The notes beneath the pieces are model-generated. The model was not told where the DNA came from, did not search any database, and saw only the letters and a program-made list of their open reading frames with translations. From a virus (Duplodnaviria > Caudoviricetes), in the IMG/VR virus record IMGVR_UViG_2738541225_000002, positions 1 to 64,000 of that record: a stretch of DNA of 64,000 nt. The stretch is one strand, 5' to 3'. The position numbers and the translations under genes are program-made. Of this stretch, positions 1-12,521 are shown one piece after another; position 1 is the stretch's first letter; every line of letters starts with the position of its first letter.

Positions 1-19
1 TTATTGAATAAAATCAATG

Positions 20-57
20 ATAAGCAGTGTCGTAAAACCACCTACGGGTGGTTTTTT
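20..57 (+). terminator. tRNA-downstream terminator, copy 1 of a 38-bp repeat
   Basis: AAACCACC-TACG-GGTGGTTTTTT hairpin plus T tract; one mismatch to 36255-36292. Confidence 0.8.
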
Positions 58-76
58 CATTTCTGTAATCTGCATT

Positions 77-98
77 TCCGAAGATGCATCCGAAGATG
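77..98. repeat. Putative integrase arm-type sites of prophage 1
   Basis: TCCGAAGATG twice (77-86, 89-98) between att and the integrase stop; related inverted copy ATGTTCGGA at 36121. Confidence 0.5.
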
Positions 99-122
99 AT
101 TTTTCCACGGACGCATAGCGAT

Positions 123-1139
123 TCATTTTCTCTGACCGCCGACAACCGGCACAATTTTAGTTTTCCTGTCATAAATCGCGGTTTGCCTCGAGTTTTTATG
201 CCCTGAAATAGCCTGTTTCTCCTCGAGGCTTCCTTCCAGATCAGAGACACCTTTCGCCTTCAGATCGTGAAATGTGAAATCTATCTGCAGGTGAGGGTGT
301 TTTTCCTGCGCTGCGATTTTGGCGTCGCGCCAGCGTGAGTTAAAACCGTCGCGGGTGTATTTGCTGCCGGCGGGTTGGTGAATGACGAAGAGGCTACGAA
401 TACCCGGCTTTAATGGCAGGGAGCGGGCCAGCGCCACCGCAGCGCGCAGGCGAGGCGACCACGCCTTGATTTGCTTAACGCCTGTTTTACCCTGGCGAAT
501 AAAGATCCCGGTGTCGCGCAGCTGGTCTTCCGTCAAAGACAGTACATCGCTTTGCCTGGCCAAACACAAATAAGCGATTTCCATAGTGGCGCGCACAACG
601 TCAGGAGCAACGTCATAAACCGCCTGGTATTCTTCATCGGTGATGTAGCGCTCGCGGGAGACCTCTTTAAACTGCTTAACACCCTGGCAGGGGTTGCGCT
701 CGACATAGCCGCGTTCATAGCCCCAACGGAATACACGCGAAAGAAAACTCTTTTCCCGGTTGGCCTGGGTGCGGCTGGACAGGCCCCGCTGATCCATATA
801 GCGGCGGATGTGCTCAGGCTTAATTTTGTCCGGGTGCACCTTCCCAAAGACCGGTAAAACTTTACTCGCGTATTTCGTATAGTCTTTCCTGGTTTCAGCT
901 GCTAAATCCATAAAATCGGGGGAGCACATGAACCGCTCGGCCAGCACCTGAAATGTCTTTCTCTCGGCTTCCTCGCCCATTACTTTTTCGTAGGCCAGCC
1001 ATACGGCTGATTGTGGTTCAGTCAGCGCGCAAAGGCGTACAGCTTTGTTATCCTTACTCCTGAATTCAAAGGCTGCTTTGCCCCGATATACGCGGGGCGG
1101 CATCCAGTTATCGGCGGGGTTTTTACGCTTTCCGGCCAT
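123..1139 (-). CDS. int: Tyrosine integrase
   Basis: R...FHDLKAKG...SGH...Y catalytic motifs; start taken at MAGKRKNP. Confidence 0.95.
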   Translation of the reverse strand: MAGKRKNPADNWMPPRVYRGKAAFEFRSKDNKAVRLCALTEPQSAVWLAYEKVMGEEAERKTFQVLAERFMCSPDFMDLAAETRKDYTKYASKVLPVFGKVHPDKIKPEHIRRYMDQRGLSSRTQANREKSFLSRVFRWGYERGYVERNPCQGVKQFKEVSRERYITDEEYQAVYDVAPDVVRATMEIAYLCLARQSDVLSLTEDQLRDTGIFIRQGKTGVKQIKAWSPRLRAAVALARSLPLKPGIRSLFVIHQPAGSKYTRDGFNSRWRDAKIAAQEKHPHLQIDFTFHDLKAKGVSDLEGSLEEKQAISGHKNSRQTAIYDRKTKIVPVVGGQRK

Positions 1140-1368
1140 TAAAGATAGCTCCGAAGTCTGGTTCGTCATCCTCCCGTAAAGGCTCTTCCTGATTGCGATA
1201 CTTGATCGGGTTCAGGAAATGCCCCCACGTCGTTTTAGGGTGGCCGTCTGCTCGTTCCATGAAGAAGATACCAGCCCGGCGCAATGCGTCGCATTGTTTC
1301 GATTTAAGTGGGGTCCCCGTCAGTTCGATCATTTCTTCCCGGGTGATGATGTCGTGATCGTGTCTCAT
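1123..1368 (-). CDS. Excisionase-like protein (DUF4224-type)
   Basis: 81 aa overlapping the int start; homologous to 37354-37584; RBS AGAGGAAAGACC. Confidence 0.8.
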   Translation of the reverse strand: MRHDHDIITREEMIELTGTPLKSKQCDALRRAGIFFMERADGHPKTTWGHFLNPIKYRNQEEPLREDDEPDFGAIFNGRKA

Positions 1369-1528
1369 GGTCTTTCCTCTGCACGCGGGCTATAGCGCTG
1401 TCTGCCTCTTCGCAAGCGCGTTGAATGTCGGACTGGGTCAATGTCCGTTTTCTGACGCTGGCCGATAGCCTGCCAATTTTGATATCGAAATCTGAAAGTA
1501 GAATGGTACCTGGTTGCCATCGCAGCAT
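1304..1528 (-). CDS. Hypothetical early protein
   Basis: ATG at 1528 preceded by GGAGACCACA RBS; 74 aa. Confidence 0.5.
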   Translation of the reverse strand: MLRWQPGTILLSDFDIKIGRLSASVRKRTLTQSDIQRACEEADSAIARVQRKDHETRSRHHHPGRNDRTDGDPT

Positions 1529-1577
1529 TGTGGTCTCCGTTGATAGGGTGAACCACAATGCTAACGACAGCTGCGGG

Positions 1578-1763
1578 TTATTTCTGATTAGGCTTAATCA
1601 GGTTTGGTTTGTTGAGAAATGCACCTTTCTCCCGGGTTATCTTCACGTTCCGGGGAAAGTGCATGCCGAGCTCGCTGCGTGCGAACGCTTCGATTATGGC
1701 GTTGGTGCCGTCTGGTAGAACGACATGCACCGCATCGCCTTGCTTCAGGGAGAGTTTCAGCAT
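1578..1763 (-). CDS. CsrA/RsmA-like small RNA-binding protein
   Basis: 61 aa. MLxLxxxxG start and GxxxPxxVxxxRE end align by eye with CsrA (MLILTRRVGE...GVNAPKEVSVHRE). Confidence 0.65.
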   Translation of the reverse strand: MLKLSLKQGDAVHVVLPDGTNAIIEAFARSELGMHFPRNVKITREKGAFLNKPNLIKPNQK

Positions 1764-1764
1764 A

Positions 1765-2328
1765 TCAGCGCACCTGCAGTGAACGTTCGCCGATCTCCAG
1801 ATGGGCGCCCGGTACCGGATTTAACAGCTCTGCTGGCACCTCTCCGCCCTCGGCGGTGATTTGTGCGGCTGCGGCCTGTGCAGCTTCCAGCGCCTCTTTG
1901 ATGGCCTGTTTATCGGGAGCGATTACAACCTGAGTGGTCACCAGTTCATCAGGGATCAGATCGGTATTATCGATCACCACGCTGACGCTACCTTTGCGAG
2001 CGGTGAACGTGTTTTTTGCCGTTTTCAGCTTATCCAGTCCGGCGGCCATCAGGCAGGACAGAATATACTTACGCAGGGCCTTATCTTTATTCTCAAAGGA
2101 TTTCTTGCGCTCGGCCAGGCGCTTCATTTCATCATCGCAGGTGCTGGCCTTGCCCAGGTTATTGCGTGCGATCACCATGACAGCATCCAGTTTGTCAGCC
2201 AGCGCGCCTTCAAGACCTTCCAGCGTATCGGCAATCATTTCCGGGGTCAGGTCATCAGAGCTTTCCAGCAGCTGCAGCAGGTTCTGGTAGTCGGCAGCGA
2301 TAGCAATAGCAGTAGTAGTGGAAGTCAT
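1765..2328 (-). CDS. Siphovirus Gp157-family protein
   Basis: Coiled-coil N-terminus; SVVIDNTDLIPDE...PDKQAIKEAL...VPGAHLE pattern. Confidence 0.8.
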   Translation of the reverse strand: MTSTTTAIAIAADYQNLLQLLESSDDLTPEMIADTLEGLEGALADKLDAVMVIARNNLGKASTCDDEMKRLAERKKSFENKDKALRKYILSCLMAAGLDKLKTAKNTFTARKGSVSVVIDNTDLIPDELVTTQVVIAPDKQAIKEALEAAQAAAAQITAEGGEVPAELLNPVPGAHLEIGERSLQVR

Positions 2329-4490
2329 TATGCTTTCTCCTCGGATTTGTTCAGTTCGGCGATACGTGCATTTTTGATATCTGTCAGGCGGCGCAGGCGG
2401 CTGCTGAGATGGCGGGAGTGCTGAGTGTCTCCTTTTGATTCTGCATCCTTGCGGTGTATCTCCAGCTCCCGGGCGATAGGGGCAAACACCTTGTTAACTT
2501 CATTGGCCGATACGGCGGTGGCGAGCGTGTTGGCTACACGGGTCAGTTTGTCGTCAAACTCCTGGCGCAAGCGCGCTGCATCCTCGGCGGTTTCGCTGGC
2601 GTTTTTGAGGTCAAACTCAGCTTTGTTTTTCTGGCGGTACTCCAGATTGTCGTAAAGGCCCATGAAAATATCGCCGCTGAATCCGAGGCCGGATAACGCC
2701 TTTTTGGTGGCGTCCGTCAGCGATTTTTTAGCAGCTTCGCCGTCGCAGATCGGGCCGTATTTGCTGCCGTAAATATATGGCGTGGAACCGTACGCGTATT
2801 CCTCACCGCGAACGCCGTTCACCAGAAACCACAGGCGAATTTTGATTACGTGGTGTTTTTCAGTGAGGAGGCCGCCATTGCCGTCGGAGATCACTTCCCA
2901 TGCCTGGTTGTTTTCGCTACCCTGGGTCTTACGAGTTATCGGCGCGCCATTGTCGAAACGCTCTTCGATGATATCCACGCCCCAGCCGATCCCCTTCATG
3001 CCAAACTCTTTGGTCGCCATCATGGTCAGATACGTGCCGTTGATCGAGGTGCCGCCGCCGTTTTGCGTGAAGGCTTTGGTAAAGCGCTCATCGGTTTTGA
3101 AGACGCGCTTCCACAGCGCCAGGTTGTCCTCTTCGGTGCCTGGCTTACCGACTGACTGTACGACCTCTTCAGCGCTCGGTAGCACTTCTTGCTGATTTAC
3201 CTGCACAACCAACTGAGCGGCATCACCAGCAATCTTTTCCGCTTTAACGCTTAACTTTTCCTCGGGTTCGCTGGCGTTGTCTTTGTCGGACGCATAAACG
3301 CCATAACCCATATCGTTAAGCGCCTCACGCGCCTGTTTCGCTTGGGTATCCGTTACAACCGGCGGCGCTACTTCCGCTTTTTCGCCTTCATTTGAGGCAA
3401 TATTTTGCGTTGCTTTAACTTCTGACTGCTTAACGGATCCGGTTTCGCCTTCTTCAAAACGGCCGTTAGCTTCCAGCCATGAAGCGATGTGGCGGCGCAG
3501 GCTTTCGGGGAAATGGTAGGTATCTTTTGCCGGCGCGTTCTGCACAACGCCAAAGATGCTGGCGCGGTCGTATTTGAGGATCTCCGGGGTAGTGCGCAGA
3601 GATGCAGACCAGCGTTTAAAGTCTTCCCGCTCCTCGGCAATAATCTTTTCTGCATCGCGGAGGTTGCCGGATAACACCGGCGCTGCAGGCGCGATAGGGA
3701 GGAGGGCGACGGCTATTTCCTGATCCAGTGTTGCGTAGGTGTGTTTGTAACCGCGCTGGGGCGCAACGGTAAAACTGGCCGCATCATCGCCAGAATTACT
3801 GGCAGCCAGTGAAGATGATTTATTAGCTGATGCGAGTATTTCGTCGCGCTTGCCCGGATTTTCAAGCCAGCGTTTTACAAACTGAGAAATAGCCGCTTTG
3901 CCCGGCGACTGGTTTTCAAAGTTGGTGAAGATCCCCTGAATCAGGTTATTCAGCCCTTCAACGTGCATGTGTTGAACCGGCTCGTTATTGTGCAGGGCAC
4001 ACAGTACATTGTGGTTAAATCGGTCCTCGTCTTCCAGGGGGTCGTCGTGGTTATTCAGGTCGTCCAGATAATCAACAACCTGCGAATAAAGATGACCGTT
4101 CATTTCTGCGTTGCTGAAGAGCAGTACGGCAGCGAAACGCTCCTTGGGCGATACCGTCATCAGATCGATGATTTCATCACCGCCAGGCAGATCCGACATT
4201 TCCGCGCCCTGGCTGTTAACCACCCATTTTTCACCGTCGAAGGTATTCTCTTGGGCGAATTGCTCATCGAACTGGCCGACGGCGGGGCGCGGCTGCCCCA
4301 CGGAGTCTTCCCAGATTTTAGGTTTGAAATAGTTATCGCCGTTTGCCGGGTAAAACTCCCACAGTTTGCCAACCATAATGCTTTCGGCAACCTTCTTATT
4401 TGGCGCATCGATGGCGATGGCCAGCGGCACGGCGCCGCTGTCTTTGATGGCTGATTTTTTCGGCTCAAACAGGCCGTGGTAGATGGTCAT
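2328..4490 (-). CDS. RecE-like N-terminal region fused to a Rad52/Sak-like single-strand annealing domain
   Basis: C-terminal GTSINGTY...FGxxGxGWG...AAKKSLTDATKKALSGLG motif. Confidence 0.65.
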   Translation of the reverse strand: MTIYHGLFEPKKSAIKDSGAVPLAIAIDAPNKKVAESIMVGKLWEFYPANGDNYFKPKIWEDSVGQPRPAVGQFDEQFAQENTFDGEKWVVNSQGAEMSDLPGGDEIIDLMTVSPKERFAAVLLFSNAEMNGHLYSQVVDYLDDLNNHDDPLEDEDRFNHNVLCALHNNEPVQHMHVEGLNNLIQGIFTNFENQSPGKAAISQFVKRWLENPGKRDEILASANKSSSLAASNSGDDAASFTVAPQRGYKHTYATLDQEIAVALLPIAPAAPVLSGNLRDAEKIIAEEREDFKRWSASLRTTPEILKYDRASIFGVVQNAPAKDTYHFPESLRRHIASWLEANGRFEEGETGSVKQSEVKATQNIASNEGEKAEVAPPVVTDTQAKQAREALNDMGYGVYASDKDNASEPEEKLSVKAEKIAGDAAQLVVQVNQQEVLPSAEEVVQSVGKPGTEEDNLALWKRVFKTDERFTKAFTQNGGGTSINGTYLTMMATKEFGMKGIGWGVDIIEERFDNGAPITRKTQGSENNQAWEVISDGNGGLLTEKHHVIKIRLWFLVNGVRGEEYAYGSTPYIYGSKYGPICDGEAAKKSLTDATKKALSGLGFSGDIFMGLYDNLEYRQKNKAEFDLKNASETAEDAARLRQEFDDKLTRVANTLATAVSANEVNKVFAPIARELEIHRKDAESKGDTQHSRHLSSRLRRLTDIKNARIAELNKSEEKA

Positions 4491-4522
4491 TGGTCTTTCC
4501 TCATTCGTGATTAATTCGCTGG

Positions 4523-4807
4523 TTAGGCGTTTTGTTTAATTTCAGGAAGCAGCCCAGAGATCACACGATCTGCGGTGTTTTTTGCTTCTTGCAGCCGTTC
4601 CAGTTCACTTTCTAGTTGAACCTTCTGTCTTTCCGCCAGCTCTTTAATTTCTGAGCTATCGACCTTGAGATAGCACTCGCCATTTCCTCCACCTGCTAAA
4701 ATCCCGGAGGAACTGCATTCGTTACCGCAAATTTTGATGATCCTGTTTGCACGTTCTAAGCCGTCTTTAACTTCTTTAATTCTTTCCAGTAAATTTTTAA
4801 TATCCAT
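4523..4807 (-). CDS. Hypothetical coiled-coil protein
   Basis: 94 aa ORF with AGAGGAAAGACC RBS. Confidence 0.7.
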   Translation of the reverse strand: MDIKNLLERIKEVKDGLERANRIIKICGNECSSSGILAGGGNGECYLKVDSSEIKELAERQKVQLESELERLQEAKNTADRVISGLLPEIKQNA

Positions 4808-4850
4808 GGTCTTTCCTCTTGGTTACTGGCGCTGGTCACGCGCCGGGTCT

Positions 4851-5174
4851 TTAAAACGGAACGTCGTTTTCTTCAATCGGAGTGTGATCTATGCATAGCA
4901 ACTGCTGAATCTGGTCTTCAATAACACCCAACTCCTTCTTAGCTTCGGCAGAGATTTTCTCTTTCTTCGCGCGAAGGGCATGGACCTGCATACCAACAAT
5001 GTCGATGGGTTCTAAAGCCGGAATGGCAACCTCCACCGTTTTAGTCGTAACGAGAACGTACAGATCAGGGTATTGCTGTGACATATCACAGGTGAATGAG
5101 TGATAAGACGTCGGAAGATATGGGTTTGTTGTTGCGAGAACGTAGATAGTTACGGGGATGGTAAGCGCTTCCAT
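4851..5174 (-). CDS. Hypothetical protein, first gene of the pL operon
   Basis: ATG 5174 with AAGGAG RBS; 107 aa. Confidence 0.7.
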   Translation of the reverse strand: MEALTIPVTIYVLATTNPYLPTSYHSFTCDMSQQYPDLYVLVTTKTVEVAIPALEPIDIVGMQVHALRAKKEKISAEAKKELGVIEDQIQQLLCIDHTPIEENDVPF

Positions 5175-5295
5175 AGCGACTCCTTGATGATATATACTCA
5201 GAGCCGATCGGCGACTCTGTCGTTGGTCTTTCCTCGCTGCAGGGTTGGTCCCCTGTAGCATTCCGGGCGGTTTGGTCACTGTCCCGGGTAAATTA

Positions 5296-5317
5296 GCCCA
5301 CTTCGGTGGGCTTTTTT
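5296..5317 (+). terminator. Intrinsic terminator (T tract on the + strand)
   Basis: AGCCCAC-TTCG-GTGGGCT-TTTTT. Confidence 0.65.
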
Positions 5318-5397
5318 ACGCCTGAAGATTGCCGGTCTTTCCCGGCTGTCAGGGCTGGTCAGGCCGCTGGTCTTTCCTCGCGTTGCGTGAATGCTTG

Positions 5398-5565
5398 AAA
5401 AAAATGCCCGGGGCGCCCGGGCCAAGACTACACACAGCAATTTTGGATTCGTTGCGGTCTTTCCCGCATGTCATCGTACTGTCGGCGACCCGAAGAATTC
5501 GCGCCCGTCTTTCCGGACTGTCAGAACTTTCTGAACAACTGCCGCGTGGTTAGTGCGTCGTTGAT
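5398..5565 (-). ncRNA. Putative ~170-nt pL-derived small RNA/leader
   Basis: Runs from the predicted pL start (ATCAACGACGCAC, lambda pL-like) to a GC hairpin plus U7 at 5422-5398; contains two GAAAGA-loop hairpins and an RprA-like segment. Confidence 0.55.
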
Positions 5566-5572
5566 GTGTGAT

Positions 5573-5623
5573 AAATTAGTCATGACTAACATCATAGTCA
5601 AGATTAAAATAAGTCATGACTAA
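5573..5623 (-). promoter_or_regulatory. pL promoter and oL operators, prophage 1
   Basis: TTGACT-17-TAATTT (5601-5573); perfect palindrome TTAGTCATGACTAA at 5576-5589 and near-copy at 5610-5623. Confidence 0.8.
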
Positions 5624-5668
5624 CAAAAAGGTTAAAAGAAAAGATAACTAATTGAGTTATAACTTAAA

Positions 5669-6067
5669 TTATTTTTTGAGTGTTTTTCGTGTGGTTAGAA
5701 GTTCTTCGAATAATTTGTTGAAACCATCTACTTTTTCACGCAATTCATTCAAATGGCGTTCTTTCTCTGATGCTGGTAGCTGATCAAATAATTCTAAAAG
5801 CTCCTGCTGATGGGGGGTTAGTTCAAGCGGCAAATCTTCTACTGAGGCGGGGATTTGATCATCATCTCCGAAAAGAATCCAGGTGGGAGAGCACCGCAAC
5901 ACTTTGCTAAGCCGGAAAAGATTTTTTCCTGTGGGTTCACTATCATCTCTTTCCCATTGGGAAACGGAGACGTGAGAAATCTGCAGCGCCTGTGCCAAAG
6001 AGCGCTGTGTAAAATTCATTTCTTTTCTGCGGTTACGGATCCGCGATCCCGGGGATTCTATCGTCAT
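5669..6067 (-). CDS. Phage repressor (DicA-like XRE HTH, no S24 peptidase domain)
   Basis: TQRSLAQALQISHVSVSQWERDDSEP HTH; 132 aa; divergent from cro. Confidence 0.88.
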   Translation of the reverse strand: MTIESPGSRIRNRRKEMNFTQRSLAQALQISHVSVSQWERDDSEPTGKNLFRLSKVLRCSPTWILFGDDDQIPASVEDLPLELTPHQQELLELFDQLPASEKERHLNELREKVDGFNKLFEELLTTRKTLKK

Positions 6068-6069
6068 CG

Positions 6070-6133
6070 TTAGCTAATACTAAATTCTCTTGACTTAGTT
6101 TGCATTAACCCCTAATTTGTTAGTTATGGCTTA
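6070..6133 (+). promoter_or_regulatory. pR promoter and three oR operators, prophage 1
   Basis: TTGACT-17-TAATTT at 6090-6118; TTAG-N6-YTWA sites at 6070, 6095 and 6120. Confidence 0.75.
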
Positions 6134-6150
6134 CAAAAGGGGAGGCTTAA

Positions 6151-6348
6151 ATGTATAAATCTGACGCAATTAAATACTTTGGCAGTTTAACCAAGTTGGC
6201 GACCGCCGCTGGCGTGCGGTTGCCATCTGCCAGCGCTTGGGGAGATATCATCCCAGAGCGTAGAGCTGCAAGGCTGGATCGAATTACAGAAGGGGAGTTG
6301 AAATACGACCCCGCTCTGTACGACTCCACCCGTTCAAAACAAAGTTAA
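6151..6348 (+). CDS. cro: Cro/DicC-like regulator
   Basis: AIKYFGSLTKLA...W.DIIPERRA pattern and position. Confidence 0.85.
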   Translation: MYKSDAIKYFGSLTKLATAAGVRLPSASAWGDIIPERRAARLDRITEGELKYDPALYDSTRSKQS

Positions 6349-6408
6349 CAACTAGCGTGATCGAAATCTGATTACGCTTAATCAATTTTCAGCGACAGGA
6401 GACGCGAA

Positions 6409-6855
6409 GTGGAAAACCTCGATGAACTGAAACGAGAGATTTTCAACTGGGCAGCGGAAAGCGGGCAGGAGTTTGTCGCCATCGAGATCAGCCGTATGTG
6501 GTTTCGTCTCGGCGGCAATACCGGCGCGCTGAAGCTGCACCAGATTGAAGACGCAGCAGGTAACGCCGACTGGCGGGCCATCAACAACAATCGTCAGCAG
6601 ATCTTTCGCTGGCTGCGTGGCGAGACAAAAGCTGCGCGGGCAAAAACCATAGCCCTTTCCAGAGCGATGGAATCGGCGCTACCGGCGGAACGTTACGCGC
6701 GCTTGGGTATGTCCACCCAGTATTTGATTTGTGTAGCCATACGCGAGTTCGCCGCGGCGATTATAGCGCTGCTGCTGGAGGCAAGAGACGGCCCGCAGCA
6801 GGTGAACAGGGCATTGCAAGCTATGCGGGAAACACAGCGCCTGACCAGCGTTTAA
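6409..6855 (+). CDS. CII-like / YdaT-type regulatory protein
   Basis: Position after cro; NRQQIFRWL...MESALP motif. Confidence 0.65.
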   Translation: MENLDELKREIFNWAAESGQEFVAIEISRMWFRLGGNTGALKLHQIEDAAGNADWRAINNNRQQIFRWLRGETKAARAKTIALSRAMESALPAERYARLGMSTQYLICVAIREFAAAIIALLLEARDGPQQVNRALQAMRETQRLTSV

Positions 6856-6875
6856 CCTGTACCGAGGAAAGACCA

Positions 6876-7097
6876 ATGAGAACACAAGATCGCATCACCT
6901 GGCGAAACGGGTTTCGCCGGAACGGGGTACAAGTCCCGATTGAAGATATCGAATCGATTTTCGAGGAGCGTCGCGCTGCTGCGCTGACGATCTGGGAACG
7001 CTACGAACTGCGCAAAGCGGCCCTGCAGGAAGCGGGACTCTCTCAGAAAGAATACGAAATCGCCTGCCGCCAGCTGGCTGACTCGCTGGGGATCTGA
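6876..7097 (+). CDS. Hypothetical protein
   Basis: ATG 6876 directly after GAGGAAAGACCA; 73 aa. Confidence 0.7.
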   Translation: MRTQDRITWRNGFRRNGVQVPIEDIESIFEERRAAALTIWERYELRKAALQEAGLSQKEYEIACRQLADSLGI

Positions 7098-7099
7098 CG

Positions 7100-8092
7100 A
7101 TGAATATTTTGCCATTACTCGACAGGCCGATCGCCTTCCAGCGTAGTTTTATACGGCTGGATATTGGCGTAACGGCTGCGCTGTTCCTGTCACAAATGAC
7201 CTACTGGACGAACAGATCCGACGATGACGGGTGGGTGTATAAAACTCAGGAAGAATGGGAGGAAGAAACCGGCCTGTCTCGCTATGAGCAGGAGGGGGCG
7301 CGTAAGAAACTCCGTTCAATCGGTGTACTACTTGAAAAAAGAAAAGGCGTTCCAGCACGTCTTTTCTACAAGGTTGATAATGATGTTTTATTTCAGGCAC
7401 TTGTAGCCGCAAACAAGGATGCGGAAAAACCACATACTGGAGTGCGGAAAACCACCAAACAAGTTAGTGGAAAACCAGCAAACTTTCATACAGAGAATAC
7501 TACAGAGAATATAGATCCCCCTAACCCCCAGGAGGGGGAAGGCGATGAACATATTTTTTCTGATGCTCAGAAAGCCCTCGAGTTTTACAACCAGCAGACC
7601 GGTACTCGCTGCCGTGACCTGAAACCGTTTGTGGTGATGCTGACGGCAACGACAACGCGGGAAGGATACACACTGGCTGAACTGCAGCTGGTTATCCGCT
7701 GGGTATTAGCCACATGGCGCCGTCGCAGCAACAGCCTGCCGAAACCCGCGAACATCTGCCGGGTTAACCGCTTTGATGGCTATCTTGCCGACGCTGAGGC
7801 GTGGGCTGTTGTGGCAGCTGAGATCGACCCGGAAGCCGTTATGAACGGCTACAACGAAATTTTCTCTGACGTTCTGCCTGTTGCTGAACTGGACGCCGAT
7901 CGCCGCCGGATGATTACCCGCCTGGCGGCCCACATGAAAAATAAAACTACCGGGGCGTTCCTGGGATACTTCGAAAAATTCCGCGCTGAAGCATCCGATT
8001 TTTATTTCGGTGAAAACGGCGGGTGGCGCGCCAGCTTTGACTACCTGATGAAACCAGAAACGTTACGCAATACCCGGGAAGGTTCGTTATGA
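7100..8092 (+). CDS. Replication initiator (O-like)
   Basis: N-terminal winged-helix GWVYKTQEEWEEETGLSRYEQ; internal repeats; upstream of dnaB. Confidence 0.85.
   Translation: MNILPLLDRPIAFQRSFIRLDIGVTAALFLSQMTYWTNRSDDDGWVYKTQEEWEEETGLSRYEQEGARKKLRSIGVLLEKRKGVPARLFYKVDNDVLFQALVAANKDAEKPHTGVRKTTKQVSGKPANFHTENTTENIDPPNPQEGEGDEHIFSDAQKALEFYNQQTGTRCRDLKPFVVMLTATTTREGYTLAELQLVIRWVLATWRRRSNSLPKPANICRVNRFDGYLADAEAWAVVAAEIDPEAVMNGYNEIFSDVLPVAELDADRRRMITRLAAHMKNKTTGAFLGYFEKFRAEASDFYFGENGGWRASFDYLMKPETLRNTREGSL
7421..7511. repeat. Probable ori iterons, prophage 1
   Basis: Three GYGGAAAA(A)CCA units followed by ACAGAGAATA twice, inside the initiator gene. Confidence 0.55.
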
Positions 8093-9477
8093 GTCCGCAG
8101 GAACTGGAAGCGTGTGTACTGGCTGGCCTTCTGAACGGCGGCGCCACTCCGGATGCATTCGACGTGATCGCCTCTACGCCTGAAGAATCTTTCAGCATTG
8201 GGTTTCACCGTCGCGCGTTCTCAGAAATTAAAAAACAGGCGCTAGCGAATGGCCTGATCGACATGCTGTTTGTCAGTGAATCTCTGGGGGGGAGCAGCCT
8301 GGCGGATTTATCAGAAATTACGCGTATTCCTGCCACGGTATCGAACCTGAAGGGTTACGCAGGGAAAATGGTCAAGGCGTGGCGCAGCCGCCGTATGGCC
8401 GAGTTGCTTCAAAACGGGGCTGATGGTATCCGCCAGGCCAATAATCAGGAGCAACGCGATCAGGTTGTCGAAAGTGCCGTGGCACAGCTGCTGGACATGA
8501 CAGGCGATACCGGTGACGTGCAACCGGTTCACATTAGCGATTTGCTGCCGACCTACATGGAAACGGTACAGAAGCGCATGGATGGCGAAGAGGGGACCCG
8601 TAACCTGAAGACGGGGATCGCAGAGCTCGACGACGCTACCGGCGGTATTAACCTGCAGGATTTAATTGTCGTCGCTGGCCGCCCTGGTATGGGGAAAACG
8701 GAATTTGCGCTGAAGCTGGTTGATGGTGTTACTGCTTCCGGCGGCGGCGCGCTGATATTCAGTATGGAAATGGCCGCTGCGCAAATCGTAGAACGCTCCC
8801 TGGCTGGCTCTGGCAACATGTCGGTGTCACGCCTGCGTAATCCCCTAGATATGCAGGATGAGGACTGGGCGCGCTTTACTGCGGCGATGGAGACCATGAA
8901 CGGGCGTGATATCTGGATCGTCGATGCTACAGACCTCACGATTGAGCAAATCCGCGCGGTTGCAGAGACGCATAAACGCCGGTATCCGCATCTGGCAATG
9001 ATTGTGGTTGATTATCTCGGCCTGATTAAAAAACCGAAGGCAGAGCGTAACGACCTCGCGATCGCCCACATATCCCGAAACCTAAAAACTATGGCTATGC
9101 GCCTGCATACGCCGACATTCGCGCTTAGCCAGCTTTCCCGTGCCGTGGATTCCCGCCCGGCGACCCAGCGCCGCCCTGTCATGTCAGACCTGCGCGATTC
9201 CGGATCCATTGAACAGGACGCCGACAGCATCATGTTCCTGTACCGCGATGAGGTCTACAACCCGGAGAGCCCGGCCGCTGGAATTGCCGAAATCATTCTG
9301 GGGAAAAGTCGCTTCAGCGCCGCCGGCGCCGTTATCTATCAGGAGTTCAAAAACGGCCATTTTCTGCACGTCGATCAACATGTCGGCAAAGAAAAAACAC
9401 GCATTCAACTGGAGGCCACAAAACCACGAAAACAACCACGTAAATACTCTGAGAAATTCAATACCGATGCATTTTAA
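8089..9477 (+). CDS. dnaB: Replicative DNA helicase
   Basis: AGRPGMGKT Walker A, VDYL, LSQLSR, DLRDSGSIEQDAD. Confidence 0.95.
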   Translation: MSPQELEACVLAGLLNGGATPDAFDVIASTPEESFSIGFHRRAFSEIKKQALANGLIDMLFVSESLGGSSLADLSEITRIPATVSNLKGYAGKMVKAWRSRRMAELLQNGADGIRQANNQEQRDQVVESAVAQLLDMTGDTGDVQPVHISDLLPTYMETVQKRMDGEEGTRNLKTGIAELDDATGGINLQDLIVVAGRPGMGKTEFALKLVDGVTASGGGALIFSMEMAAAQIVERSLAGSGNMSVSRLRNPLDMQDEDWARFTAAMETMNGRDIWIVDATDLTIEQIRAVAETHKRRYPHLAMIVVDYLGLIKKPKAERNDLAIAHISRNLKTMAMRLHTPTFALSQLSRAVDSRPATQRRPVMSDLRDSGSIEQDADSIMFLYRDEVYNPESPAAGIAEIILGKSRFSAAGAVIYQEFKNGHFLHVDQHVGKEKTRIQLEATKPRKQPRKYSEKFNTDAF

Positions 9478-9515
9478 CCGCGCCTGACCAGCGCTACATA
9501 ACCGAGGAAAGACCA

Positions 9516-10166
9516 ATGACCACGAATTTAAATTACCCAAAACCAGTGAATCCTGATGATGGCTGCGACTGGCTGCCCGTTATTTTATGGCGCATGAACG
9601 CTGGCGCCCGAGCTCGTAGCCGTTCCGTGTTTGTTTCGGCTCCACGCCCGGCTCCTGTTGACGGCATTACTCCACAAAAACCGGTTAAGCGTGAAGTAGC
9701 AGCGCCCGTAGTATCCGGCCGCCAGCGCAAAACGCATATCGGGACTGTGATTTATTCCAGAGGCGAAAAAAGCGTTCGCCTGAGCGAAGGCGCGACCGTC
9801 TGGTCTGCTGGCTCCAATGAGCATTTTGATAAAATAACAGGCCAGCGCGTCGGCAGTATTGGCCGGCATCGCCTGGTGCTGGAGAGTATTAAGCCCCTGA
9901 GAAAGACTACCCAGGAAGTATCCGCCCAGCAGCTTGTTGCGCTGATGAAGGGTAAAAAGCTGTCGTACCAGAACATCCTTTCAGCCATTAAAAAACATCA
10001 TCCCGGTGCTGAAATCACCTTACGCGATCTGCAAAAACGTATCGCAACGATGCTCGCATCGAATCACGTCGGAATTATTCGACATGATGACATGCCGGTG
10101 CCGCATTTCACACTCACCAGCGTGGATCCCCGCTATTACGCCAACTCAGAAAAAACGGGGGTTTAG
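9516..10166 (+). CDS. Hypothetical protein
   Basis: 216 aa; RBS GAGGAAAGACCA. Confidence 0.75.
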   Translation: MTTNLNYPKPVNPDDGCDWLPVILWRMNAGARARSRSVFVSAPRPAPVDGITPQKPVKREVAAPVVSGRQRKTHIGTVIYSRGEKSVRLSEGATVWSAGSNEHFDKITGQRVGSIGRHRLVLESIKPLRKTTQEVSAQQLVALMKGKKLSYQNILSAIKKHHPGAEITLRDLQKRIATMLASNHVGIIRHDDMPVPHFTLTSVDPRYYANSEKTGV

Positions 10167-10169
10167 GGC

Positions 10170-10403
10170 ATGTCCGGGCAATCAGATTATCTGCCGCCCG
10201 GCTTACCGCTCAATCGCGCCAAATGGCCGCAGGAGTGCCAGATCAAAGAGCACTACGACATGCGGGCCTCAGCACTCATACGCCAGCTGTTCGAGAAGAA
10301 AGTTACTCGGCAGTACATCGTAGAGTCGATTGCTGCGACGCCGGAAAGCTACCGGGAGTTTTTCAAAGAACGATTAAATTTTTGGCGGGAGAAAAGGGCA
10401 TGA
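10170..10403 (+). CDS. Hypothetical protein
   Basis: 77 aa, tightly packed in the operon. Confidence 0.65.
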   Translation: MSGQSDYLPPGLPLNRAKWPQECQIKEHYDMRASALIRQLFEKKVTRQYIVESIAATPESYREFFKERLNFWREKRA

Positions 10404-10546
10404 AGAACTTATTTTCACTCGAGGTTGAGCATTACAGCAAATATACCCTGCGTTGGTTTGCCGCGGCGATAAACGCAATTGGCCTGGTTGCATTTGGCAT
10501 AATTACTTATGGCATCTGCATGATGATCGAATGGTGGACAGCATGA
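10400..10546 (+). CDS. Small membrane protein
   Basis: 48 aa, ATGA overlaps at both ends, one hydrophobic helix. Confidence 0.55.
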   Translation: MKNLFSLEVEHYSKYTLRWFAAAINAIGLVAFGIITYGICMMIEWWTA

Positions 10547-11307
10547 ACATCGATACAGTAAACGAACTCATTCAATCACTGGTGTCGGCTGGCGCGCTGT
10601 TTGTCTCCAACCATTCTGGCGGCAAAGACAGCCAAGTGATGCTCATCAATCTGCTTGAGGTCATCCCGCCGAGTCAGCTTGTCGTCGTGCATGCATCGCT
10701 TGGCGCGATGGAATGGCCAGGAGCGCTGGAGCTGGCCCAGAAGCAGGCAGAGGCCGCAGGCATACCGTTCATCGTCGCCCGTGCACACAAGACCCTGCTG
10801 GAGATGGTAGAGCGTCGATTCGTGAACCGCCCAGAGGTTCCGAGCTGGCCTTCTGCCAGTACCCGGCAGTGCACCAGTGACCTGAAGCGCGGACCTATCC
10901 AGCGCGAGGTTAGAGCCTATGCGAAGGCCAACGGGTTCAAGGTCATCGTTAACTGCCTGGGCCTGCGGGCTCAGGAGTCGCCTGGTCGCGCAAAGCGGCA
11001 GGCGTTCCGGAAGAACGAGACGGACTCCAACTCAGTTCTGACCTGGTATGAGTGGCTGCCGGTTCATGAGATGAAGGCCGACGAAGTGTTCACCACCATC
11101 CGCGAGACTGGTCAGGAACCGCATTACGCTTACGCGCTGGGTAATGAGCGTCTTAGCTGCGTGTTCTGCATCATGGCAAGCCGCAACGATCTGAAGAACG
11201 GCGCAACGCATCACCCTGACCTGCTGGAGCAGTATGCGGCACTGGAGGCTCGTACTGGCTACACCATGCACATGAATCGCATACCAATTAAGGAGCTTGC
11301 AGCATGA
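10543..11307 (+). CDS. PAPS-reductase-family (PP-loop) protein
   Basis: SGGKDS, RQCTSDLK, GLRAQES and RLSCVFC motifs. Confidence 0.85.
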   Translation: MNIDTVNELIQSLVSAGALFVSNHSGGKDSQVMLINLLEVIPPSQLVVVHASLGAMEWPGALELAQKQAEAAGIPFIVARAHKTLLEMVERRFVNRPEVPSWPSASTRQCTSDLKRGPIQREVRAYAKANGFKVIVNCLGLRAQESPGRAKRQAFRKNETDSNSVLTWYEWLPVHEMKADEVFTTIRETGQEPHYAYALGNERLSCVFCIMASRNDLKNGATHHPDLLEQYAALEARTGYTMHMNRIPIKELAA

Positions 11308-11624
11308 CTTATATCACCGAACTGGCGCAGAAACGCAACGCTGCAATTTCTCAGCTAAGTGGCGCATTTGAACCATGACACATTAACCATCGTGAAGTTG
11401 ACGCACTGTCATACGTCGCCGATGTGATGAATGAGCTGGTAGAGTCTAGGAATCCTTCCGTACGGCATACATGGAGTGGGGCAATGAAACAGGCTGGGGG
11501 CAGGCGGATAAGACGGTATTGATTTTTTGATGGTTATGTGTGAGACATAAAGTGTAGATATAGAACATTTGCATTACATGTCATACAATAGAATATCAAT
11601 ATTGATAATAATTTGAGGGGATAT

Positions 11625-12521
11625 ATGGATAATCGAGATGCTAGTTGCGAATCATCTCTTGATGAGGGTTCGCACAAGGACTTAAAAAAACCCATTTGCG
11701 GTATAATTATGCCTATATCTGATACGGATGGATATCCTGTCGGGCACTGGAATGATGTTTACTCTATATTATGCGAGTCAGCAAGGTGGGCCGGTTTTGA
11801 GCCAAAGTTAGTAAGCATAGATAAAAATGAAAGTGTTGTGGTTATTCATAAAAGTATTGTTCAGAATATATATGATAACCCTATTGTTATTTGCGATATT
11901 AGTAGCAGGAATGCTAATGTTATGTTGGAGTTAGGGATGCGCCTAGCATTTGACAAACCAGTAATCATTGTTAAAGATGATAAAACCCCATTCAGTTTCG
12001 ATATTTCCCCAATAGAACATTTACACTACCCTAGTGATTTAAGATATAAAAAAATAAATGAATTCGAGTTATTGTTAAAAGAGAAAATAGTAAATACTTA
12101 CAAGGCGTCGCAGAGTGATATAAATCACTCTACATTCTTGAAAAACTATGGAACTTTTGTAACTGCAAAGATAGATGAAAAAGAAGTTAGTATGGATAAT
12201 TTCATTCTCAATGAGTTGGGAGAGATGAAAAGAATGTTGTTAAGTGCATCATCGTTAAATAGGGGAGTGTTGGCGCCGCCAGAAAATACCCTCCCTAAAG
12301 ATGTTATGTTTGTAAGTGTTAGTAATTATGATGATTACAACTTAAGGAGGTTATATTCTTTCTTGGTTGAGGAAGGAGTTCCGGTTAAAGATGTAACGTC
12401 TTACGATGAAGGGACTCTTAGTGTAAGATTTAAACATGATATAACAACAGAACTAAAAGATAGGATGGATAGCTTAATTATTAAGTTTAAGAATGAACAT
12501 GCGTTTTATTCAATTTTTTAA
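11625..12521 (+). CDS. AT-rich moron, nucleoside 2-deoxyribosyltransferase/TIR-like domain protein
   Basis: CGIIMPI...ICDISSRNANVMLELGMRLAFDKPVIIV...FDI motif; GAGGGG RBS; low GC. Confidence 0.7.
   Translation: MDNRDASCESSLDEGSHKDLKKPICGIIMPISDTDGYPVGHWNDVYSILCESARWAGFEPKLVSIDKNESVVVIHKSIVQNIYDNPIVICDISSRNANVMLELGMRLAFDKPVIIVKDDKTPFSFDISPIEHLHYPSDLRYKKINEFELLLKEKIVNTYKASQSDINHSTFLKNYGTFVTAKIDEKEVSMDNFILNELGEMKRMLLSASSLNRGVLAPPENTLPKDVMFVSVSNYDDYNLRRLYSFLVEEGVPVKDVTSYDEGTLSVRFKHDITTELKDRMDSLIIKFKNEHAFYSIF

Follow-up and report, generated by a model that had tools for sequence, protein, structure and literature searches.

Several early genes of a lambdoid prophage share a ribosome-site motif whose exact complement lies in a putative small RNA encoded opposite the leader of the early-left (pL) operon. 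The prophage begins at the start of the window analysed here, which comprises 64,000 nucleotides (positions 1 to 64,000 of IMG/VR record IMGVR_UViG_2738541225_000002, a provirus of 79.6 kb). In the best-supported view, the finding exceeds an ordinary ribosome-site consensus, and its centre shifts from a protein to an antisense RNA. The initial annotation of this DNA had proposed that the phage possesses its own Csr-type translational switch, with a CsrA-like protein of 61 amino acids acting on the motif, whereas we consider it fairly probable that a small RNA related to IsrB represses translation by pairing with the early ribosome sites and forms an RNA-based second layer of immunity. An antisense small RNA directly explains the motif, the GACCA loops of the hairpins that accompany it, and two elements of the leader.

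The motif, GGAAAGAC, has 14 copies in the window, compared with 1.82 expected; none of 100 shuffles reaches 14. Twelve of these copies fall within the stretch from 882 to 9513, where the early operons diverge and every copy reads in the sense direction, and only two lie beyond 10 kb; the motif is specific to the early region and is not used by the late genes. The ten sense-strand copies that had initially been reported for the early transcripts agree with the sequence in all coordinates (1370, 4493, 4809, 5226, 5335, 5370, 5457, and 5507 on the minus strand; 6866 and 9506 on the plus strand), and additional copies at 882 and 4627, which lie within coding sequence, are probably due to chance. 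The longer form of the motif, the 12-mer GAGGAAAGACCA, has seven exact copies in the early region. Five of them abut an ATG, namely that of xis, of the gene for a 720-amino-acid exonuclease, and of open reading frames (ORFs) of 94, 73, and 216 amino acids, which confirms the five copies claimed for start codons. The motif is found where an intergenic gap makes a ribosome site necessary, and translationally coupled genes lack it.

The same pattern extends to the relatives of the prophage. Among 80 related loci fetched via the 61-amino-acid protein, 72 have at least four same-strand copies of the motif clustered upstream; the medians per locus are seven sense copies on one arm and two on the other, compared with 0.35 expected, and in phage BUCT709 a stretch of 14.7 kb contains 11 copies (0.47 expected). 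The layout is kept in about 170 related loci. The motif is a private, strand-specific signal that is common to the early ribosome sites of both arms and to the pL leader, and it is under strong selection.

A supposed variant of the motif at 1531-1538 has to be removed from this set, because GGAGACCA belongs to a separate, conserved inverted repeat (CATTGTGG...CCACAATG), of which it forms the right arm. This repeat (1526-1577, minus strand), which reads CATGGTGG...CCACCATG in relatives, spans the region from just past the stop codon of the 61-amino-acid gene to the start codon of the ORF at 1307-1528; it encloses the ribosome site of that ORF and resembles a translational coupling or masking hairpin.

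On the plus strand at about 5205-5318, convergent with pL, comparative analysis of related sequences shows a selected structure that fits a putative IsrB-related RNA of about 115 nucleotides. The Rfam model isrB (RF01386) matches over its full length (positions 1-87) at 5232-5316 (plus strand) with 29.7 bits against a gathering score of 35 (E = 0.0018 in a 501-base search), and the predicted fold of the plus strand at about 5200-5320 has an energy of -63.5 kcal/mol (z = -6.8). In an alignment of 55 sequences (43 distinct), 94.3% of the cells in the three hairpins and the terminator stem can pair, compared with 45-52% in slid controls; compensatory changes are present in 15 of the 24 pairs, with a covariation score that was reached in none of 500 shuffles. 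Hairpin 2 has compensatory changes in eight of its nine pairs. In hairpin 3, an element common with Gifsy-2 IsrB, the loop is invariant, four of the five inner pairs are compensatory, and many G·U pairs are present on the plus strand. The seed, TGGTCTTTCCTC (RNA form UGGUCUUUCCUC), is invariant in all 55 aligned sequences. Most of a wider set of 72 unique sequences (151 instances) keep TATACT or TATAAT, a 5' hairpin with changing stems, the seed, both TTGGTC loops, and the terminator. The -10 element persists in most of these relatives even where the flanks differ, in some cases with an upstream TG (extended -10), and the terminator retains its hairpin and T-run while the sequence of its stem varies. 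Near its 5' end (5205-5215, plus strand, and relatives), the small RNA has a conserved GATC (Dam site), and in several variants GAUC(A/G)G is able to pair with the UUGGUC part of the seed, which it might mask.

The pairs that distinguish the two strands point to two sets of predicted structures on opposite strands, a small RNA with invariant UUGGUC loops and mRNA hairpins with GACC(A) loops. This assignment follows from the opposite balance of G·U and A·C in the two sets of stems. In hairpin 2 (27 unique sequences), the wobble-type positions comprise 17 G·U pairs on the plus strand, equivalent to A·C on the leader strand, and no G·U on the leader strand. The hairpins that precede the 12-mer, together with which they form a cassette, are structures of the mRNA strand, with eight G·U compared with two A·C among 41 unique stems; the stem of the 73-amino-acid ORF, which holds a G·U pair on the mRNA strand, is the commonest variant (104 instances). 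Most of the five target genes are preceded by such a short, GC-rich hairpin with a GACCA loop. All five GACCA-loop hairpins listed initially are where they were said to be, but the one at 5240-5255 belongs to the RNA gene on the opposite strand, as does the motif copy at 5224-5235, which is the other strand of the small-RNA seed.

RNA-library contigs are assembled, unstranded, and of flat depth; they resolve neither the strand, the ends, nor the level of a transcript, and their uncovered parts carry no meaning. The size-fractionated run X11 contributed no contig. In a strain with the same prophage, contig depth is 171 over cI, 46 over 4725-5197, and 10 over 5197-5531; contigs break at 5197 in run X1 and at 5188-5209 in run X9, which, like run X10, represents a relative with an insertion. 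The breaks fit transcript ends near the proposed -10 element, which is only a hint.

Seed and 12-mer are exactly complementary to each other, and the UUGGUC loops of the small RNA are complementary to the GACCA loops of the mRNA hairpins. The order of the elements suits antiparallel pairing, since the loop precedes the 12-mer in the mRNA and the seed precedes the loop in the small RNA. Net cofold energies, calculated as cofold minus monomer energies because duplexfold on full-length RNAs gave meaningless long duplexes, range from -11.5 to -17.1 kcal/mol for the five start regions with the motif (exonuclease, -17.1; 216-amino-acid ORF, -16.9; 94-amino-acid ORF, -15.4; 73-amino-acid ORF, -14.9; xis, -11.5), compared with -1.4 to -6.0 kcal/mol for eight other early start regions. 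In the best cofolds, including that of the 216-amino-acid ORF, the predicted pairing extends from the Shine-Dalgarno sequence to the A of the AUG.

Further evidence comes from a second lineage, which was found by a scan for the two-loop architecture without specification of the seed; its matches include chance matches, and those with hairpin-2 stems of at least six pairs were retained. Here, the RNA seed is UGGUCUUGCCUC (DNA TGGTCTTGCCTC) and the ribosome sites on both arms read GAGGCAAGACCA. Among the matches listed, 155 loci have seed A (...UUUCC...), and their ribosome-site copies comprise 669 of the A type and a single one of the C type (187 and 1 in unique contexts), the latter located inside a coding sequence. 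The 17 loci with seed C (...UUGCC...) among the matches listed have no A-type and 38 C-type copies (0 and 27 in unique contexts). The consistent use of A or C in the ribosome sites of each phage suggests that whatever reads the motif reads that base, and that the reader differs between the lineages. In part of the C-type lineage (L305/L306; G042, G053), GAGGCAAGACCA and an operator-like palindrome, TGTGACATGTCACA, precede the start of the homologue of the 61-amino-acid protein; there, the protein gene itself belongs to the motif set.

The tree of the 61-amino-acid protein separates two clades (100/100 support each) that do not entirely follow the seed types. Clade I comprises six A-type phages and one C-type phage (G049), and clade II comprises seven C-type phages and one A-type phage (G013). 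In both G049 and G013, all ribosome sites match the type of the small RNA and not the type usual for the protein clade, and even the ribosome site of xis, about 200 bases downstream of the 61-amino-acid gene, follows the RNA. This discordance between RNA and protein rests on two recombinant phages.

If the small RNA acts in trans, its seed would pair across the Shine-Dalgarno sequence to the start codon, while its UUGGUC loop would kiss the GACCA loop of the mRNA. Such pairing would block the entry of ribosomes and provide a post-transcriptional second layer of immunity, in which the genes for excision and recombination and those of the replication arm would be kept silent as long as the RNA is present. 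More speculatively, the ORF-less cassettes of the leader may be decoys, so that firing of pL would soak up the RNA while transcription crosses the RNA gene, and the seed types A and C may act like heteroimmune specificities.

Several observations weigh against this reading. The Rfam isrB model and the 88-nucleotide form in Salmonella both start at a position corresponding to 5232; the RNA's 5' end is placed by its -10 element, and a start downstream of 5235 would leave the seed outside the RNA. In the variant of the window, the UGGUC of the seed is predicted to pair within the 5' hairpin, leaving only UUUCCUC free, and the contigs over 5197-5531 have a depth of only 10 and, being unstranded, give neither strand nor ends. 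The seed lies opposite one of the leader copies of the motif, and both its invariance and the change between A and C would also be expected from selection on the sense strand alone; moreover, the split between the A and C lineages may be a single historical event. The protein clade agrees with the motif type in 13 of the 15 cases, and the 61-amino-acid gene accompanies the regulon in both lineages. The match between the loops amounts to 4-6 base pairs, and some cassette loops read CUAACCA or GACCU/C. At least the pL-proximal type of GAAAGA hairpin in the leader stays GGAAAGAC in the C lineage, which the RNA does not explain. Finally, the IsrB of Gifsy-2 lacks the seed, and no trans targets were seen in the first 14 kb of Gifsy-2 with a GACC-loop hairpin finder that is too noisy to reveal them there or in the late region.

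The protein remains the foremost competitor of the RNA. It could be a divergent dimer of the CsrA type that binds the cassette's hairpin loop together with the ribosome site and represses translation, with the leader copies as a sponge or autoregulatory site, a reading that we consider rather unlikely. A CsrA-like fold of the protein is plausible and, on balance, more likely than not. CsrA (PF02599) is the sole match in Pfam (residues 1-45 on model positions 1-45), and the top three matches obtained with Foldseek in the PDB are RsmE 2mfc, CsrA 5dmb_D, and RsmE 2jpp (template modelling score 0.40-0.55, probability up to 0.96, E = 0.28-0.74). The top match in BFVD is a phage 'carbon storage regulator' (probability 0.97, E = 0.11), and a CsrA cluster ranks third in the ESM Atlas (0.88, 198 shared features). 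The AlphaFold2 monomer (predicted local distance difference test score 81) has three strands, strands 2-4 only, as would be expected from an intertwined dimer. In ungapped register from residue 1, nine of 47 residues are identical to host CsrA, including L2, L4, G9, G33, P37, V40, R44, and E45, with a score reached in none of 20,000 shuffles. CsrA genes are known in phages, with 30 cases in 2517 genomes described in PMC7366521.

The initial description of the protein as CsrA-like is partly supported by its sole Pfam match and its best structural matches, but the resemblance is weak and does not amount to membership in the family: the Pfam score (15.0 bits, E = 0.025) is below the cut-off of 27, the CsrA model reaches 9.8 bits in a six-frame search, and a search of three whole host genomes with this model (E up to 1) does not list the prophage gene, with unrelated proteins scoring 13 bits. 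Profile comparisons are not significant either. The PDB profile search (E up to 10) has no CsrA among its matches, hhalign against host CsrA gives E = 0.09 and a probability of 0.6%, and all E values of Foldseek are at least 0.1; neither BLASTP against CsrA nor an NCBIfam scan of the small early proteins returned a match. The family (phrog_2482) is small, with eight close relatives and only 19 matches in a profile search of 1.84 billion representative proteins, counted without regard to identity, and the host CsrA sequence used for comparison has nothing that corresponds to the LIKPNQK strongly conserved at the C terminus of the family.

The residues and bases expected of a CsrA-type interaction are kept in only part of the phages. 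In Escherichia coli CsrA, R44 is an important RNA-binding arginine in strand 5, and GGA is the core of CsrA sites. R44-E45 is kept in six of the seven clade I proteins (G049 has NRP there), but the aligned position is S, E, or N in clade II, whose phages carry the same regulon, and the motif of the second lineage has GGC in place of GGA.

The co-occurrence of gene and motif, a check put forward with the initial annotation, gives a divided answer. The gene is present in 26 of the 32 motif-bearing records, including 11 of the 12 that are at least 90% complete (the record without it is truncated at the leader), and in 14 of the 15 records of the second lineage, including all five complete ones; a search for motif-bearing phages without the gene yielded only fragments and this truncated record, which does not separate the models. 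However, this association is confounded by the location of the gene in the xis-int module of one phage lineage, and three complete prophages (G033-G035) with a Gifsy-like early region have the gene and a motif-bearing xis site but neither the leader array nor the right-arm cassettes. From a reading by eye of L075, these array-less prophages appear to carry a Gifsy-type isrB. Together, the two discordant phages, the loss of R44, the GGC motifs, and the array-less prophages favour the RNA over the protein as the reader of the motif. Of the proposed Csr-type switch, what stands is a motif shared by early genes, a gene that travels with it, and a plausible CsrA-like fold; the protein fails the family tests, and in the two discordant phages the motif type follows the RNA. 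The 61-amino-acid protein may nevertheless coexist with regulation by RNA.

Another possibility, which we regard as unlikely, is that no trans-acting phage factor is involved. The cassette would be a portable combination of an insulating hairpin and a strong ribosome site, perhaps a linker for module exchange or a site read by host CsrA or the ribosome, and the small RNA would be confined to cis effects on the leader and on the 107-amino-acid gene that it overlaps. A GAGG followed by 7-8 bases before the AUG is, by eye, an optimal Shine-Dalgarno arrangement, and the restriction of the motif to places where a gap calls for a new ribosome site, with its absence from translationally coupled genes, also suits this explanation, as do the apparently purely cis-antisense IsrB of Gifsy-2 and the persistence of the xis copy in array-less prophages. 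However, 12 invariant bases exceed the needs of a ribosome site, late genes do without the motif, and copies without an ORF are kept in the leader. The uniformity of A or C in each phage (669:1 and 0:38) implies a common, lineage-specific reader; 12-base repeats would be too short for recombinational homogenisation, and the loops of two separately folded RNAs are both complementary and invariant.

A combined arrangement is also conceivable, although we give it little credence. In such a three-part switch, the RNA would silence the early genes of its own phage and of incoming relatives, the leader copies would titrate the RNA upon induction, the A and C seeds would define heteroimmune classes independent of cI, and the CsrA-like protein and/or the GAAAGA hairpins would add a protein-RNA layer, for example by stabilising or resolving the kissing complexes.

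Antitermination, the alternative offered initially, in which the hairpins would be nut/boxB-like or put-like signals for transcription from pL and pR, is highly improbable. In its favour, a strong intrinsic terminator about 150 nucleotides into the pL leader has to be read through somehow, and one GAAAGA hairpin, about 50 nucleotides beyond the putative start of pL, is invariant in the two lineages and resembles the GAAAA and GAAGA loops of lambda boxB. Against it, a scan of the early ORFs against Pfam, PHROGs, and NCBIfam revealed no N-like protein, and GACCA hairpins are repeated at ribosome sites deep within both operons (e.g., after dnaB, at 9480) instead of occurring once in each. The interval between cro and the cII-like gene has no GAAAGA hairpin, and antitermination would at most explain the three GAAAGA hairpins and not the cassettes.

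The five motif copies claimed for the leader are present but are of two kinds, ribosome-site-like copies (5368-5379 and 5224-5235) and copies in GAAAGA hairpins (5507-5514, 5457-5464, and 5335-5342). The former vary in number between relatives and read GGCAAGAC in the C lineage. The latter are usually preceded by CUGACAG, and a U·G wobble and a compensatory change, read by eye, fit the leader (sense) strand. Since the pL-proximal GAAAGA type remained unchanged when the seed and the ribosome sites switched, these hairpins appear to be a separate element that is not read by the seed, with a possible boxB-like or protein-binding role.

Among known systems, the closest is IsrB of Gifsy-1 and Gifsy-2 (RF01386). 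Salmonella IsrB is described as an expressed prophage RNA of 88/94 nucleotides that is antisense to both neighbouring genes ('<- -> <-') and located by the exonuclease VIII gene (PMC2330248); it is also listed as a ProQ-associated prophage RNA (PMC5391140). As a control, the Rfam model recovered Gifsy-2 isrB with 99.3 bits at 5993-6080 (plus strand), between STM1010 and the exonuclease VIII gene. The RNA of the window shares with IsrB the antisense location in the early-left operon on the exonuclease side, the UUUGGUC-loop hairpin followed directly by a Rho-independent terminator, and the full-length alignment with the model. It differs in its score below the gathering threshold and in two additions, a further UUGGUC hairpin and, on the 5' side, a stretch that complements a recurring ribosome-site motif; Gifsy-2 has neither this stretch in its IsrB nor a matching motif in its early region. 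A limited literature search found no paper on the motif, on the function or target of IsrB, or on an RprA-like prophage RNA.

In the proposed mode of action, the RNA resembles the immunity RNAs c4 of phages P1 and P7 and CI of P4, small structured phage RNAs that pair with several short repeats in early transcripts, one of them covering a ribosome site; the specificity types of P1 and P7 also lie a few bases apart. However, these RNAs are processed from the target strand, whereas the RNA of the window would be a separate convergent transcript, and the target recurs here in at least five dispersed genes, on both arms. The Rfam C4 model has no match at E up to 1 in positions 1-12000 of the window. 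The likeness to CsrA/RsmA and their sponge RNAs CsrB/RsmXYZ comprises a small basic β-protein with the length and register of CsrA and a GGA-containing, purine-rich motif on ribosome sites that is repeated in non-coding RNA, in part in hairpin loops; the differences are the failure of the protein to reach the family thresholds, a motif lineage without GGA, and an RNA complementary to the motif, for which Csr systems offer no equivalent (rsmX matches only weakly, and on the other strand). The repressor protein RegA of phage T4 likewise shuts off a set of early genes via a sequence shared by many start sites, but it is an unrelated protein with AU-rich sites, whereas the best candidate in the window is an RNA.

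Antisense RNAs of temperate phages usually act on one gene or transcript, whereas here a single RNA would control unlinked early genes on both arms. If this is true, IsrB-type RNAs, known since 2008, would gain a concrete function, and a post-transcriptional layer of lysogeny would be present in common prophages of Klebsiella, Raoultella, Enterobacter, and Citrobacter, where it may also act on superinfecting relatives. The natural types one complementary base pair apart represent a ready-made compensatory-mutation experiment, and a private ribosome site with its matching RNA could serve as an orthogonal translation switch.

Table 1. Features of the early region in the window (aa, amino acids; nt, nucleotides).
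Feature	Position	Strand	Remarks
Integrase	123-1169	-	
xis, DUF4224 excisionase	1123-1368	-	DUF4224 match and PHROG excisionase
ORF downstream of the 61-aa gene	1307-1528		
xis start	1368-1379	-	12-mer alone, no GACCA hairpin upstream
61-aa basic β-protein gene, phrog_2482	1578-1763	-	Translationally coupled to upstream Gp157-family gene
Exonuclease, 720 aa			Early-left operon; PHROG exonuclease
Cassette of 720-aa exonuclease	4491-4530	-	12-mer (4491-4502), weak hairpin CGC-CTAACCA-GCG (4518-4530)
94-aa ORF and 107-aa ORF			Early-left operon, beyond the exonuclease gene
Cassette of 94-aa ORF	4807-4844	-	Hairpin GGCGC-GTGACCA-GCGCC (4828-4844), 12-mer (4807-4818)
pL leader, untranslated, 390 nt			Between the 107-aa ORF and the cI-like repressor
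Putative -10 element TATACT	5193-5198	+	
Putative isrB-like small RNA gene, antisense to pL leader	5205-5318	+	5' end placed by the -10 element; 3' end, T-run
Seed TGGTCTTTCCTC	5224-5235	+	Exact complement of the ribosome-site 12-mer
Hairpin 2	5236-5259	+	Loop UUGGUC at 5245-5250
Hairpin 3	5263-5288	+	Loop UUGGUC at 5272-5277
Rho-independent terminator of small RNA	5295-5318	+	Stem, then TTTTTT, on the plus strand only
ORF-less leader cassette (putative decoy)	5335-5379	-	GAGGAAAGACCA (5368-5379), hairpin GGC-CTGACCA-GCC (5353-5365), CTGACAGCC, hairpin CCGG-GAAAGA-CCGG with motif copy 5335-5342
RprA-like 3' part of short pL transcript	5396-5498	-	Ends at intrinsic terminator (stem 5406-5422, T-run to about 5400)
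GAAAGA-loop hairpins	5457-5514	-	CCG-GAAAGA-CGG (5507-5514), GCGG-GAAAGA-CCGC (5457-5464)
Putative pL promoter (TTGACT, 17 bases, TAATTT) and TTAGTCATGACTAA operators	5560-5625	-	Read by eye; not confirmed by consensus scan
cI-like repressor	5669-6067	-	
cro, YdaT-like cII analogue, 73-aa ORF, replication genes including DnaB, 216-aa ORF		+	
Cassette of 73-aa ORF	6837-6875	+	Hairpin GCGC-CTGACCA-GCGT (6837-6851), 12-mer, ATG
Cassette of 216-aa ORF	9480-9515	+	Hairpin GCGC-CTGACCA-GCGC (9480-9494), GAGGAAAGACCA, ATG

The RprA-like element of the leader (Table 1) scores 40.2 bits with the Rfam model in the window and 40-50 bits across relatives, against a gathering score of 70; other instances are located at 6726-6845 (minus strand) of L001 and at G037:C105:159881-159988. 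Immediately ahead of the terminator it has AATTGCTGTGTGTAGTCTT, 19 bases that are the same in host RprA; it represents the second-best RprA match after the real gene in a 5.4-Mb Raoultella host genome, and was the only element returned by an Rfam scan of four relatives (E up to 0.01). It could be a phage mimic of the pairing region of RprA, comparable to StxS, which activates rpoS (PMC7547250). Weak leader matches to rsmX, Trp-leader, AgvB, and other Rfam families were rejected: they are below threshold and either lie on the wrong strand or owe their score to a terminator hairpin; rsmX reached 24.2 bits against 56 on the opposite strand, and the leader has no other match to a sponge RNA of the Csr type.

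The 107-amino-acid ORF, the first of the pL operon, belongs to phrog_2479, to which no function is assigned in PHROGs. Its depth in the unstranded contigs (46 over 4725-5197, compared with 10 for the leader and 171 for cI) may reflect a promoter of its own and expression in the lysogen.

Relatives of the early region are present in genomes of Raoultella, Citrobacter, Enterobacter, Escherichia whittamii, and Rosenbergiella. The phage records BUCT708 and BUCT709 (L001 = OM816835; OM816834), which are labelled as Stenotrophomonas phages, have 86-87% identity to the early region; because all other relatives are found in Enterobacterales, their host label may deserve a check.

The accessory region of the right arm encodes a protein with a PAPS-reductase domain (10555-11307, plus strand; E = 2.5e-11) and, at 10170-10403 (plus strand), a weak match to the theta subunit of DNA polymerase III (20 bits, below the cut-off). 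At 11500-12500 of the window, the G+C content drops to 0.32-0.36, compared with about 0.53 in the surroundings; this island contains an ORF of 302 amino acids (11613-12521, plus strand) without a Pfam family, which is likely an accessory or defence insertion after the replication module.

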